Positions 1 through 59,400 of a stretch of 64,000 bases of DNA are shown piece after piece. Every line of letters starts with the position of its first letter. Position 1 is the first letter of the stretch. Under the pieces are notes generated by a model that had not been told where the DNA came from, did no database searches, and worked only from the letters and a program-made list of their open reading frames with translations. A program made the translations under genes and the position numbers. The stretch spans positions 60,822,001-60,886,000 of the forward strand of contig OZ260661.1 in the NCBI GenBank assembly GCA_965285935.1. The letters run 5' to 3'. Origin of the DNA: Ophelia neglecta. Its lineage: Eukaryota.

Positions 1-3000
1 CACAGAAATATTGTCAAGTTTCTTCTATTATTTTTGGTGCCAAGAGCATAATAATTCACCAGCCGACAGGTTGAAATTCCTAAGAGAAATGGCCAATTGA
101 TGAAGCGAAGGGCCAAAATGGAAAAATACCAAACTTATCAATCATAATCAAATCCTCTAGGCAGCTGAGAGTGGCTCTGATACGAACATTTTCCGGTAAA
201 TTATTCTCCCTAATCTGATCTGGATTCGATAGATTAGAATTGCAAATCGATTAGTATAAAGCCAGATTTTGACAAACCTCAATACATATCGTTTTAGAGT
301 CAGCAAAGAGCACGTCCAACGGGCTAAATAAAATGGCCATAACGACTGAGTGGCGAATTGTGATAACAAGTGGAAACACGCTGAGAATACTAAAACTTCA
401 TTTACAACCAAATCTATAACACAGCCACTAGCAAAAAACAATTACACTATTTTGATCTATGTTAGCTTAGCCAAAAATGGGCATAGGCCAATTATTATGT
501 AAGAATTCCGGCACACCTTTAATACTCAAGAACTGCAGGTGCGTTTTCCACGCAGTTTTAATTAAAACCAGTTCATTATTTTCTCAGAATGATGTATGTG
601 TTATATACATTTTTCACAAGAAAGAGGAAGGAAGTTAGATCGTGATTTGTGCTACAACTTAATGAAGTTGCATCACTTTGATAAGATTTTTAATGAACCC
701 GATTAATAAAGGAGAAGTGATGCCAAGAAGTAGTTCGTTCTTTGTTTGCCAAGAGAGCAGACGACATATAGCCAGTAGGAGATCCATTAAAGTCAGTCCC
801 CAGCCCGGGCCCTCCGAGTACAAACTGCATCATTCCTAGCTCTAATACAGGAAAGAACCGGACGAGATGCCGTCTGCCTAGGCCCTTGCTGCCTAACCTT
901 TAGACTTTCGTTTCCTATCCCAGAAATGATTTGTTAGAAATCTGAACATCATGAGTCAAAACCCATCCTATAATGAATCTAATTTCGCCGGGGAAATATC
1001 TCCAGTTTGAAAAATAAATTGAGATTGAACGCCAGGGCATCAAAATTGATCTCTGCCTTTTTCGATAAATCACAAGCAATGAAAGGAAAGGTGTTGTCAA
1101 TTCTCAAGAAATGAAACAACATTTGGGTAATATTTCATCGAATTTAGGTTTAGCCGCTTCTACAAGAATCTCGTCCCCGTGTCTATCTCTGACTTCTTGG
1201 CCCTTGCATCAGAATAAATGAGAGAAATATGGATTTTTCGATGAAAGGGTTTTGTTGTTCCAGCAAAGTGAACAAGGCTGCTTTGACGGTGGTATTTCTG
1301 CACAGAAGGGGTTGATTGATAACACATTCCTGAATATTTGCTTCTATATTCAATTCCTACAAATAAATCAATTTTCTCACATGATATTGTCAGTAGAAAA
1401 TGTAGAGTTCCTGACATTACCATCTATTCAACGGACAACAATGCCTAATAATTTCTATAATAAGGGACATATTTCGTTTTGTGTGCCTAAGTGAAAGGTT
1501 GGACTATAATTATTAGCATAGTTGAACACATAAGGACATCGACTAAATCACTCACGGACAACGGAGGCAAAGACTAAATTTTGTATCGATTAAGGAACCT
1601 CATAACGTCCAAATTGTGTTATACCTGTTGACAGAACTCCATTAGGAATATAGATAGAAAACAAAATATTTTCAAGTGGACTATTTAACCCCCCCCCCCC
1701 CTCCCCATCTCACCCCACTACTATGTGTTTCCACAAATATCGAAACAAAGAATTAAACAGCAAAAATAGCACACTTTATCAGATGTCATGGCAAGGGAAA
1801 TAGGACAGCTAAAAAGCATGAAATTGTAGCTGTTGATAACCTCCTGAAAAAAGGGGGTCTTGTCTAATTCGACCACTCTGCACCATGTGAACACAAGAGA
1901 AATAGTGACAACGATTAAGAGTCCGGATCGCCGAGGGCAAAGCCCATGCATAACGAGTTCTTTCTTACAACTACTGGAAAAAGCTTATATTTCCGCACAA
2001 AGTGTAGGTTTCATACGATATTGAACCCAAGATGACCCAGTTTCTCAACACCTCGTTTCACTTCCCGATATATTTAGAGTGGTGAGGGAAAATTGGGCTA
2101 GCAGACTCTGGATGCACAACGAGTGACATGAAACATATAAAGACATTCAGGGTTACTCGTAAACTAAGTGGAAATCTCCCGTCAGATCACCTAAAATATT
2201 TATACTTCTGTCGTCAACAGTAGGAGAAATTTATTTATCGGGGCTTATGATGAATTGCGACACAATTCTAGACTGTGATCACTCACTGTTGGTCATATCC
2301 CAAGGCTAGATTTTCCCTGCCTACCGATGCAGTCAACAAAATACGGGTCGCTAGCGTCGTATAACAAGATATATAATGGTGGCCAGAAGACTCAGTCTTC
2401 CATTTTGAATTCTCCACAGTAACAGCACTGGAAGAAAACACACCTTTGTGCTTTCTCCTAAATGTAAAACCAGGCGACTAAAAAGGTTTGGTCAATCGAG
2501 CAGAAATTCTTCGGAAGACAAAACAAAGATTTCTAAATCGATAATGTTTTAGCCTCGAGTGAATTTATGGACTTGGGCCGAATGTGGGGTTGGAAGAACT
2601 GCCGACGAAGTCGACACCGGATGCCTCTTACGCGACCTGAATCGTAATCAAGAGGGATATTCCGTTTTCAAACGGCAAAAAGAGAAACCAATGATTCAAT
2701 GCAGCATGCTTAGAATTGATAACGGAAGAGCACTTTGATGCCACTAGTCTAGCTATATATGGCCAAAGAAGGGAAACTTTGATTGGTATTCGCGATATGG
2801 GCGGCGACCTTTTTACATGATAATTTGTTTAAGTTTGCAGTCGTTCCTTCAACTCCGCAAGGAATGGACATGAATATTTCAGGTTACCATAGCACACTGG
2901 TGATCGATCTAAACTACCAATACCGCAGTTATTTATTTCAAGACATTTTTTTCTATTTACAGAGCTACAGATGAGGATTAGAAAAAGTTTATAAGGCACA

Positions 3001-56400: not shown

Positions 56401-59400
56401 GCAGAACTCTGACTGAACCCCACCAGATCTTAGTGGCAGAACTCAGACTGAACCCCACCAGATCATAGTGGCAGAACTCAGACTGAACCCCACCAGATCA
56501 TAGTGGCAGAACTCAGACTGAACTCCAACGGATTATAGTGACAGAACTCAGACAGAACCCCACCAGATCATAGTGGCAGAACTCAGACTGAACCCCAACG
56601 GATTATAGTGTCAGAACCCATACTGAACCCCACTAGATCATAGTGGCTGAACTCAGACTGATCCCCGCCAAATCATAGTGGCAGAACTCAGACTGAACCC
56701 AACCAGATCATAGTGGCTGAACTCATACTGAACCCCACCAGATCATAGTGGCAGAACTCAGACTGAACCCCACCAGATCATAGTGGCAGAACTCAGACTG
56801 AACCCCACCAGATCATAGTGGCAGAACTCAGACTGATCCCCGCCAAATCATAGTGGCAGAACTCAGACTGAACTCCACCAGATCATTGTGGCAGAACTAA
56901 GGCTGAACCCCACCAGATCATAGTGGCAGAACTCAGGCTGAACCCCACCAGATCATAGTGGCAGAACTCAGACTGATCCCCGCCAAATCATAGTGGCAGA
57001 ACTCAGACTGAACTCCACCAGATCATAGTGACAGAACTCAGACAGAACCCCACTAGATCATAGTGGCAGAACTCAGACTGAACCCAAACGGATTATAGTG
57101 TCAGAACCCATACTGAACCCCACTAGATCATAGTGGCTGAACTCATACTGAACCCCACTAGATCATAGTGGCAGAACTCAGACTGATCCCCGCCAAATCA
57201 TAGTGGCAGAACTCATACTGAACCCCACCAGATCATAGTGGCAGAACTCAGACTGAACCCCACCAGATCATAGTAACAGAACTCAGACTGAACCCCACCA
57301 GATCATAGTGGCTGAACTCATACTGAACCCCACTAGATCATAGTGGCAGAACTCAGGCTGAACCCCACCAGATCATAGTGGCAGAACTCAGACTGAACCC
57401 CACCAGATCGTAGTGCCTGAACTCATACTGAACCCCACTAGATCATAGTGGCAGAACTCAGACTGAACCCCACCAGATCATAGTGGCTGAACTCATACTG
57501 AACCCCACTAGATCATAGTGGCAGAACTCAGACTGAACCCCACCAGATCATAGTGGCAGAACTCAGGCTGAACCCCACCAGATCATAGTGGCAGGACTCA
57601 GACTGTACCCCACCAGATCATAGTGGCTGAACTCATACTGAACCCCACCAGATCATAGTGGCAGAACTCAGGCTGAACCCCACCAGATCATAGTGGCAGA
57701 ACTCAGACTGAACCCCACTAGATCATAGTGGCTGAACTCATACTGAACCCCACTAGATCATAGTGGCAGAACTCAGACTGAACCCCACCAGATCATAGTG
57801 GCAGAACTCAGGTAGAACTCCACCAGATCATTGTGGCAGAACTCAGAAAGATCCCCACCAGATCATGGTGACAGAACTCAGATAGAACTCCACCAGATCA
57901 TAGTAAAAGAACTCTGACTGAACCCCACCAGATCTTACTGGCAAAAGTCAGAGTATACTCTTGGTAATGTTGTTTGCGTTAACCATAGTTTAACAGAGTC
58001 ATAGAACCCAACGTTAATGAAAGATAGCGAGTAATTAATATAACATTGAACGAGCCGCAGAATATCTGGACACCTCGTCAGGGGATGGCAAGTACTCCAG
58101 ACCGAAATTACCTACAAGAAATGGTCTTTTTATAGATCTGATGGGTTTTTTATGGCTTTGCAACCATGGTATTGGGAACTGATAAAATTAAAGAGGCAAA
58201 TCAACTTGGTTAGCCAGACTGGACGGTTTAATTATCTAAGAATCATTGTAAGACAATCTGACATTTCTTACTTTACTTCCTTACTATAGCTAGGGTCTTC
58301 GCCCCTGAGGTAATTGAAAGGCCGTCGCCGGCATGTTTGTGTTTATCTTTTTGCCGGGTGAATCTCGTATCTGGAGTAGTTGGTGGTCAGCCAAATATAG
58401 CCGATCTGACAGCTTTTTTGGAGCTGCTTCGAGCAATCACAATGACAATGGGCAAACAAGGTACTGAAAATGGGGTTTCTCAAAACATCACTGTCACAGT
58501 GGAATTAGTTACAACGCCAGTAGTGTCTGAAAAAGAGTGAGTTTTGTACCCTAGCTATACGAGTCTTGTTATGCGGCCTCTGAGCCTCTTCAACCGAAAA
58601 ACCTGTCTCAAAGAGCTCCACTTGTACCATCAGCATCATCAAACCAGTGAAGGATGGAATTTGATGAATGTTAAAATCCACACAGCATCCTTACTGCAGA
58701 ATATCACATTTGCGCCAGATCACTTCTGTGGGAATTCAGGTTGCTAGGCATCATGCAAGTCAGGGATGGAGAAGCAAAGAGAAGGCATTGGATCAGCGCC
58801 TCAGCGGTGGCCTGATGAGGTCAAGACCTTGTAACCGACCTCGGCAAAATCGACCCATTTCTAGGCGGCATTCTATAGGCTTGTTAGCACATCCCAAAAG
58901 CCTTTGGCTAACCCTCTAGGTGTTACTTACCAAACCACATGCTGCATATTCGATCAAACATGAGGAGCCAATCCCTCACGGACAGTAGGAACTTGGCAAC
59001 TTACGTTTCTTTCTATTATTTTTGTTTATTAAACAAGTGTGAACAGATCATAACTAGCAGACGACACAACCGACGAATGGAACACGATAGCGGTGCAAAC
59101 GGCTATACAGCTCTTTTTTAAAAAGAAATAAAATTATCTAGATGTTCGGTTTTATATAGTATACGTTACATGTTTGATATAGCTATAGGCGAATTTAAGA
59201 CCCCGTATAGTACGTTTTTGTACGTAAATCACATCATGGTTCACCAATTTGGCGATTTGTTTTGTTTGGGCCGCATTACCACCTTGGTAATAATGTTGCG
59301 AGCGTAATATAATCCGCATTTTCGTAATAGAATTCGAGGGTTTGACCTACATTCCGGAAGAGGAGGGCTGCAAAAACGGTGCCCCGGGTGATTTACGCTC

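Follow-up and report, generated by a model that had tools for sequence, protein, structure and literature searches.

What is a ten-base word doing when it recurs, apparently unattached to any repeat, through the Hox cluster of a lophotrochozoan, probably an annelid? The window analysed here, a 64-kb stretch of the Ophelia neglecta genome (contig OZ260661.1), holds nine exact copies of GCAGACGACA on its two strands, and the coordinates and strands that an earlier note on this DNA gave for them were all verified (Table 1), as was a 9-mer at 26022(-), which lies inside the variant GCAGACGACT. That note put the chance expectation at well under 0.1 copy; dinucleotide shuffles bear this out (mean 0.05, largest 1, in 100 shuffles), but the real genome is more generous, with 7,634 copies in 762 Mb, that is 10/Mb or 0.64 per 64 kb, and against this rate nine copies still have P=3e-8. 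A reverse-pattern control (1,675 copies genome-wide) is not relied on, because GCAGACG is common to the control and the word and the control is therefore not clean. The word sits in a 40–50% GC context. The site at 59057 is intronic, as previously claimed, in a gene that we take to be Lox4 from the earlier note and from flanking peptides: exon 1 ends near 59,887 and the homeobox exon starts near 53,464. A Post1 homeobox was looked for within 200 kb of Post2 and none was found, which together with the Hox peptides makes an annelid the probable source among lophotrochozoans.

Table 1. Copies and variants of the word, and Lox4 exons, in the window
Feature	Position	Strand	Remarks
Exact GCAGACGACA	757..766	+	
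Variant GCAGACGGCA	868..877	-	111 bp from site 757; matrix score 16.0
Variant GCAGACGAGA	4211..4220	+	Tolerated C9>G
Exact GCAGACGACA	10071..10080	-	Reads FADDT, without RT match
Exact GCAGACGACA	10257..10266	+	
Variant GCAGACGAGT	10447..10456	-	Matrix site; third member of a 390-bp cluster, overlooked in the earlier note
Exact GCAGACGACA	12577..12586	-	
Exact GCAGACGACA	25148..25157	-	
Variant GCAGACGACT	26021..26030	-	Contains the earlier note's 9-mer
Exact GCAGACGACA	32565..32574	+	Reads FADDT, without RT match; weak variant at 32598
Variant GCAGACGATC	33301..33310	+	Matrix site
Exact GCAGACGACA	49113..49122	-	
Exact GCAGACGACA	50523..50532	+	
Lox4 homeobox exon (part tested)	53243..53464	-	Pfam Homeodomain E=6e-23
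Exact GCAGACGACA	59057..59066	+	Inside Lox4 intron
Lox4 exon 1, ATG to just beyond YPWM hexapeptide	59887..60330	-	

The mismatches that the word tolerates resemble those of a binding site. Its consensus is (A)GCAGACGA(C/T/G)(A/C/T) with the core CAGACGA fixed, and the mismatch profile amounts to a 14-bit matrix in which positions 1, 9 and 10 are tolerant, position 5 slightly so, and CAG.CGA hardly varies; such a fixed core with tolerant edges, in place of uniform decay, is the pattern of a transcription-factor binding site. The CpG is kept, as had been proposed from the window: forms in which it has decayed are near background (C6>T, 7 versus 2.7; G7>A, 3 versus 3.3) while exact sites number 85 versus 1.6, and CG and TG forms stand at 45:4 in the Hox cluster compared with 7,634:2,895 genome-wide. 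Two Msx-type paralogues 20 Mb apart suggest that the core is also better conserved than neighbouring non-coding bases, at least in this one gene pair: within non-coding blocks of about 74% identity found by BLAST, 7 of 11 cores are shared by the two paralogues (null 10%, P=3e-5), and the cores are concentrated in the conserved 8% of the DNA (8/28 and 10/20). In other paralogue clusters several cores have been lost. Three contig runs of one sample carry many alternative letters over window positions 1–20,000; among 40 of the 273 rows none falls at a site, too small a share to gauge constraint. Taken with the matrix, this retention gives good support to the proposal that the word would be the site of a sequence-specific factor, and protein very probably binds it.

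Could the sites instead be inert leftovers of LINE reverse transcriptase (RT) (F/Y)ADD codons, or of some decayed transposon? Genome-wide, copies do lie mostly within repeats, as is the case for 24 of the first 30 on C1, and some of these are RT-like YADDT frames. Two of the window sites read FADDT, and from such readings the earlier note suggested that ancient LINEs could have seeded the sites. However, an F or Y codon precedes only 5 of 60 sites versus a background of 9.5%, the favoured base before the word is A, which ends no F or Y codon, and neither FADDT frame has an RT match in Pfam. The flanks of the window sites are mutually unrelated, as had been noticed, and each of the two stretches searched occurs only once in the genome. 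Matches to any other sampled locus contain none of 101 Hox sites and none of 15 Fox sites, and the three of 28 homeobox sites that do fall in cross-locus matches are the Msx paralogue element; among the sampled loci, then, no shared MITE, LINE or other repeat family was found. This comparison drew on a library of 1.84 Mb of sampled loci and two genome-wide searches, and a rare or ancient family might have escaped it. In the seven repeat families checked the word lies in the interior, and no terminal inverted repeat bears it. Comparing 149 site flanks by tblastx with four loci of LINE-like character yielded 14 short rows, with a best E of 0.002, which we take as chance. With the CpG undecayed and cores preferentially retained between paralogues, we give almost no credence to the sites being inert repeat remnants today, although the motif as such could conceivably go back to a very old transposon.

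The enrichment extends well beyond the window. The whole 564-kb Hox cluster holds 45 exact sites, or 80/Mb, about eight times the genome-wide 10/Mb, and in the 400 kb flanking the window the word is the top non-simple 10-mer, with 28 copies versus 1.0 expected. On C1, the 0.7-Mb Hox cluster contains 13 of the first 100 sites of AGCAGACGACAC and 8 of the first 100 of AGCAGACGACAT, each against 0.7 expected; outside Hox, another homeobox is present within 25 kb for 8 of 87 sites (1.4 expected) and within 50 kb for 10 of 92 (2.6 expected). Loci sampled at 10 kb each tell the same story: 20 other homeobox loci (200 kb) have 15 exact and 28 relaxed sites and 16 single-exon Fox loci (160 kb) have 5 and 15, compared with 1 and 4 at random loci and 1 and 1 at housekeeping loci (200 kb each; P=2e-5 and 9e-10). 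CpG-rich random DNA gave no exact site in 104 kb versus 11 in 161 kb at homeobox loci. The word is thus not equally abundant everywhere, being denser at Hox, homeobox and Fox loci, but it is not peculiar to the Hox interval of the window: it is spread cluster-wide and also marks the majority of the homeobox and developmental Fox loci sampled elsewhere. The gene set is uneven. By the gene types that we assign from the homeodomains, Hox, Msx-, Pou3/4-, NK1-, FoxC- and FoxG-type loci are rich and gut-type loci are poor; ParaHox loci are depleted, with three weak matrix sites and no exact one in 50 kb, and loci of FoxA and FoxQ2 type have 0–1 sites, a paucity not expected of an entirely general enhancer factor. 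Cdx-type loci are likewise poor in sites.

Within the Hox cluster the arrangement of sites bears on whether the word might divide the cluster by acting at boundaries or as an insulator, in the manner of CTCF or the fly Bithorax insulator proteins. In Capitella a species-specific motif does mark many TAD boundaries (57.6%) and loop anchors (68.8%) (10.64898/2026.05.18.725834). In the Ophelia cluster, however, 162 matrix sites are spread evenly over 564 kb at about one per 3.5 kb and drop to zero just beyond Hox1 instead of peaking there, and exact sites show no strand bias (26+/19-), so that the edge concentration and orientation bias looked for in this cluster were both unseen; the insulator role offered in the earlier note is very unlikely. 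Sites show a mild promoter bias, with 21 versus 10.3 expected within 2 kb of Hox start codons, and a 2-fold excess, as there, of doublets ≤100 bp apart (19 versus 8.8). Over the whole cluster the supposed pairing of exact sites did not hold (gaps ≤300 bp, 2 versus 1.1 expected; ≤1,500 bp, 5 versus 4.9), and the absence of sites reported from 36.8–48.9 kb is borderline, one of 23 matrix sites falling in this 19% of the window (P=0.05).

Known words offer little purchase on the identity of the reader. The SMAD-binding element is CAGAC and the Mad site GRCGNC, and both strings lie inside the word, as the earlier note had seen for CAGAC; GGCGCC is 2.3-fold enriched within 150 bp (P=0.004, 1 of 20 words tested), and BMP signalling is known to act on Msx. 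A SMAD (BMP/TGF-beta) response element is nevertheless highly improbable, since neither mismatches nor companion elements fit: CAGACA and GCAGACA reach only 0.8–1.0x, GRCGNC-N5-GTCT is at background (1 versus 2.7; 2 versus 1.3), GCAGGCGCC is depleted (1 versus 3.8), and within GRCGNC it is the final C that tolerates mismatches best, whereas the N is fixed. Among the words of known factors, SMAD, HINFP, Meis, Zeste and REST words were not enriched, and YY1, CTCF and KLF words were enriched about equally in random DNA.

Two alternatives deserve more weight. First, the word might recruit a repressor or Polycomb, as a lophotrochozoan counterpart of fly PRE motifs, keeping genes silent until used. 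The word extends over the entire Hox domain and over gene classes that Polycomb typically targets, while it avoids housekeeping genes, GA repeats are enriched too in these loci (4.9x and 7.0x versus 2.0x), and the Owenia Hox cluster is described as broadly H3K27me3-marked before activation (10.64898/2026.05.18.725834). Against this, neither YY1 words (15 versus 17.6) nor GAGA words (14 versus 10.2) co-localise with sites within 150 bp. ParaHox and FoxA-type genes, usual Polycomb targets, are moreover depleted of sites, and we consider recruitment of this kind unlikely. Second, the word might be read by an ordinary transcription factor that is specific to a tissue or stage, such as one of trunk ectoderm, nerve cord or mesoderm, and has no special architectural role; the uneven, gut-poor gene set would suit it, as would the grouping of several sites within conserved enhancer-like blocks. 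Yet no family consensus among those tested fits the word, and it ranks above every other non-simple word in the Hox cluster, which would be unusual for a tissue factor. Nor is there enrichment in 80 Hox-flank contigs of other animals, with 13 matrix sites in 315 kb (background density) versus 18 in 42 kb here, a comparison that includes only 23 kb of lophotrochozoan sequence outside one divergent group. A tissue factor too thus seems rather unlikely.

The reading that we favour, at what we judge to be even chances, is that this constrained non-coding motif at Hox and many developmental transcription-factor genes is the site of an opening and tethering factor. A single sequence-specific, probably lineage-restricted protein would make developmental enhancers accessible and, within their regulatory domains, tether them to promoters, acting in this way instead of repressing; it would probably be sensitive to CpG methylation, and the 9–11 bp non-palindromic site and published parallels suggest a zinc-finger protein. 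More tentatively, and with the balance against it, this protein could be a master factor, architectural or pioneer, that is peculiar to the lineage and has no relation to CTCF, YY1, GAGA factor or Zelda, with CAGACGA marking nearly all trunk, neural and mesodermal regulator loci. If so, developmental regulatory domains could be mapped in the group from this word by itself, and the cluster-wide Hox domain that has been reported for annelids would have its sequence basis in it. That a single word can be picked out from sequence alone, recurs at other regulator loci and is constrained bears on what recruits chromatin openers, tethers or Polycomb to spiralian Hox and developmental genes, and it could serve as pull-down bait, as a target for reporter mutation and as a cheap marker of developmental enhancers where functional tools are few.

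Text searches turned up no earlier description of the word, although it may have appeared as a logo in a figure, outside the reach of such a search. Full-text matches listed for TGTCGTCTGC and GCAGACGACA have only unrelated titles, those listed for GCAGACGAC and CAGACGAC contain no occurrence, the two supplementary files of PMC9977687 that were searched lack the word, and the accessible portions of PMC11292947, PMC12153100 and PMC13652810 hold nothing on it.

Parallels for the proposed factor exist in other lineages. Drosophila Zelda (TAGteam) and GAGA factor are zinc-finger factors of restricted lineage that make chromatin accessible or tether elements. Their short words, which form loose homotypic clusters and are over-represented at developmental enhancers, resemble ours in this; the sequence differs, and early-acting FoxA-, FoxQ2- and Cdx-type loci are poor, unlike Zelda targets. 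Fly PREs are made up of YY1/Pho and GAGA sites. Those of YY1/Pho, at fly PREs and at annelid TAD boundaries (10.64898/2026.05.18.725834), are likewise tied to Hox and developmental loci, but GCAGACGACA lacks their CCAT core and shows no local co-occurrence with YY1 or GAGA words. The same source implicates YY1 in some annelids and an unassigned motif in Capitella teleta, described at the boundaries of TADs and the anchors of loops, in a compartment enriched for transcription-factor genes and at a Hox stripe anchor (10.64898/2026.05.18.725834); by this description the lophotrochozoan motif would differ in placement from ours, which is spread through the domain. With the Capitella motif, the nearest parallel is that of the ctenophore proteins CTEP1 and CTEP2, which bind an unmethylated CpG motif at loop anchors (PMC12221973), a lineage-restricted motif at regulatory elements read by a zinc-finger protein as we propose. 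Their motif is GC-rich, has two CpGs and occurs at many promoters, with binders and loops demonstrated (PMC12221973), whereas GCAGACGACA, known here from its sequence, is selective for developmental regulator loci. Its core CpG is intact, as in a CTEP-like site, and the CG:TG ratio would fit its being unmethylated.

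Nine exact copies of the ten-letter word (core CAGACGA) occur in the window, all at the positions that the earlier note gave, where 100 shuffles yield a mean of 0.05 and a maximum of 1. The genome-wide rate is 7,634 copies in 762 Mb (10/Mb), or 0.64 per window (P = 3e-8 for nine), and free-standing copies must be scarcer still, as 24 of the first 30 genomic copies belong to multi-copy families. In the 400 kb beside the window, DNA outside the view of the earlier note, the word ranks first among non-simple 10-mers (28 vs 1.0 under an order-4 model). The 800 kb searched around the window hold ten minus-strand Hox genes, with Hox1 at 60.527 Mb and Post2 at 61.080 Mb as the outermost; their names are assigned by homeodomain and neighbouring peptides. 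Within 200 kb of Post2 the search revealed no Post1 homeobox. The 564-kb Hox1–Post2 interval contains 45 exact sites (80/Mb), with 2 in the 100 kb to its left and 7 in the 200 kb to its right. Sites are spread throughout this domain, fall sharply past Hox1 and persist for ~120 kb on the upstream side of Post2; close to the start codons of nine Hox genes (within 2 kb) they are twofold enriched. The window is only mildly richer than the remaining cluster (9 vs 4.6 expected, P = 0.045).

The developmental loci pooled for this purpose (1.09 Mb) contain 85 exact copies where 1.6 would be expected. Single-letter variants are over-represented if they alter position 1, 9 or 10, slightly so at 5, and hardly elsewhere in CAGACGA; the fitted matrix reads (A)GCAGACGA(C>T>G)(A>C,T), with ~14 bits and ~390 sites. 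Such a fixed core with tolerant edges is the mismatch pattern expected of a transcription-factor site. Retention of the CpG, as proposed earlier, is borne out: CG:TG forms stand at 45:4 in the cluster vs 7,634:2,895 genome-wide, and decayed forms are near background. Exact sites show no strand bias (26 plus, 19 minus). Of 65 exact sites, only 4 lie in stop-free frames of at least 130 codons. Exact sites are no more paired than chance, contrary to the earlier impression; among weaker sites, doublets within 100 bp are about twice as frequent as expected (19 vs 8.8).

The word is not confined to the Hox interval but marks developmental regulator loci across the genome, a broader pattern than first reported. 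In 10-kb stretches selected before counting, it is enriched at homeobox and Fox loci elsewhere in the genome (Table), the Fox set alone being non-significant against housekeeping loci for exact sites (P = 0.066). Preservation of CpG does not account for this pattern: among CpG-rich kilobases, those of homeobox loci (161 kb) contain 11 exact sites, those of random loci (104 kb) none and those of housekeeping loci (41 kb) one. A further 197 kb of paralogue clusters, whose selection was not blind, gave exact/relaxed counts of 20/46. Two 12-mer extensions of the word were each listed at 100 sites over the first 105 Mb of C1; 13 and 8 of these fall inside the cluster (0.7 expected each). Outside it, and against a homeobox list that is a lower bound, the first extension comes within 25 kb of another homeobox at 8 of its 87 sites (1.4 expected); the second does so at 5 of its 92 (1.5 expected), and at 10 within 50 kb (2.6 expected). 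No matrix site was found at three ParaHox loci, which are poor in the word although other homeobox loci are rich, and an additional 20 kb of the Gsx–Xlox interval, fetched as a test, contained 3 weak sites and no exact or relaxed one (4.7 relaxed expected). Together with FoxA-type (1 site) and FoxQ2-type loci (0 sites), this scarcity tells against the role being fully general. Another set of words, rich in GC (CCCCGAGGCCG, CCCGGGTCTG), is 7–9x enriched in pooled developmental loci, controls being nearly without it, and could represent either a repeat or a further motif. TAGGCCTA and TACATGTA, both palindromes, are in strong excess in Hox cluster, homeobox and random loci alike.

Table. Locus sets, comparison contigs and accompanying features (G000, the genome; C1, C5 and C7, its chromosomes; L-numbers, individually fetched loci; exact/relaxed, counts of exact and of relaxed matches to the word).
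Feature	Location	DNA	Sites	Remark
Window	G000:C1:60,822,001-60,886,000			between Antp and Lox4, Lox4 included
Homeobox loci, other chromosomes		20 x 10 kb	15/28 exact/relaxed	exact site in 10 of 20 loci
Single-exon Fox loci		16 x 10 kb	5/15 exact/relaxed	
Split Fox loci		4 x 10 kb	2/2 exact/relaxed	
Random loci		20 x 10 kb	1/4 exact/relaxed	
Proteasome and Sm/LSm (housekeeping) loci		20 x 10 kb	1/1 exact/relaxed	
Divergent Lox4/Lox2 group	other animals	110 kb	5 matrix	
Other lophotrochozoans	other animals	23 kb	1 matrix	
Remaining Hox-flank contigs	other animals	183 kb	7 matrix	
DNA upstream of Post2	G000:C1 61.09-61.21 Mb (L121-L132)	~120 kb		motif density persists; no long ORF or homeobox found; suggests a 5′ regulatory desert
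Sites in Hox1 and Hox2 coding sequence	L111:5268 and L113:6927		exact	translate Ala-Asp-Asp; possibly double as code and site
Three Msx-type genes	C5 43.27-43.32 Mb and 23.50-23.55 Mb (L224/L226 with L301-L308)			
ParaHox loci	C7 (L221, L222, L231, L321, L322)	50 kb	0 exact, 3 weak matrix	Gsx-, Xlox- and Cdx-type; Cdx-type ~22 Mb away from Gsx-Xlox pair
Tandem array	window 36,900-37,660			22-bp units
Tandem array	window 46,500-48,900			58-bp units, with GCAGACGTT (near-miss of the word) ~23 times
Tandem array	window 56,130-57,952			35-bp units, in Lox4 intron
ORFs	window 43.1-44.3 and 46.4-46.8 kb			no match in Pfam
Repeat copy	L013:1501-1570			12-bp unit bearing the word, three times in tandem, immediately before a GC box and TATA-like box
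Further repeats	L079, L084			tandem doublets of the word

Constraint on the word is seen in a pair of Msx-type paralogues separated by 20 Mb on C5, which have 13 collinear non-coding blocks in common over ~35 kb, one of them with three motif sites. In their alignment (4,064 columns at 67–82% identity, after removal of one non-collinear and two coding blocks), CAGACGA is kept in both copies at 7 of the 11 aligned positions with the core in either, compared with 10% for 7-mers of the same blocks (P = 3e-5); this is one gene pair, and BLAST-found blocks favour shared words, with the null drawn from those same blocks. Where the core is kept, the two copies differ at positions 1, 9 and 10. The conserved blocks make up 8% of the DNA, yet contain 8 of 28 and 10 of 20 cores. 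In this one gene pair the word is better conserved than neighbouring non-coding bases; in other paralogue clusters some cores are kept and several lost. The block set is also a ready map of Msx enhancers.

The word is constrained, non-coding, strand-neutral and selective for developmental regulator loci, and it is very likely a protein site. The proposal of a binding site for a sequence-specific factor stands in that respect, but the word does not punctuate the Hox interval alone. A SMAD site, suggested by the CAGAC within the word, finds no enrichment of companion elements: generic CAGACA is at 0.8–1.0x, the BMP silencer layout is at background and GCAGGCGCC is depleted. GGCGCC is 2.3x enriched near sites (one of 20 words tested). 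Sites show no local co-occurrence with the YY1 or GAGA words of a PRE, and the suggested boundary or insulator role is at odds with the lack of concentration at edges and of orientation bias. Repression via Polycomb and an ordinary tissue-specific factor are less likely but still live alternatives. One protein probably reads the word; the intact CpG suggests that it would bind unmethylated DNA, and the domain-wide spread, doublets in conserved blocks and promoter bias sit better with a candidate factor that opens or tethers enhancers than with one acting at boundaries.

The nearest worked-out case to that of this putative reader is CTEP1/2 of ctenophores, zinc-finger proteins specific to that lineage, whose motif at loop anchors is bound when unmethylated (PMC12221973). 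Among annelids, a 2026 preprint describes cluster-wide Hox domains, YY1 at boundaries in Owenia, and in Capitella a species-specific, unassigned motif that marks 57.6% of boundaries and 68.8% of loop anchors; compared by description rather than by letters, the latter may or may not be identical to the word (10.64898/2026.05.18.725834).

The motif is probably lineage-restricted, to judge from Hox-flank contigs that include only 23 kb from other lophotrochozoans. The exact word is absent from all 80 such contigs of other animals (315 kb), and matrix density there equals background, compared with 18 sites in 42 kb surrounding the homeoboxes of this animal. The divergent Lox4/Lox2 contigs are, we presume from their peptides, clitellate annelids.

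Seeding of the sites by LINE reverse transcriptases, also raised earlier, finds no support in codon, base-preference and Pfam tests: an F/Y codon precedes 5 of 60 sites (background 9.5%), A is favoured at −1 (32 of 60), and the two FADDT frames lack a Pfam RT match, both regions being single-copy. Nor do the sites look like transposon remnants when matched to any other locus in a 1.84-Mb library: none of the 101 Hox sites and none of the 15 Fox sites had a match, and the 3 homeobox sites (of 28) that did are the Msx element; 1 of 5 control sites lay in a repeat. In seven repeat families the word is internal and absent from terminal inverted repeats. With the word in tandem in some repeats (L013, L079, L084; Table), mobile elements may be borrowing the host factor.
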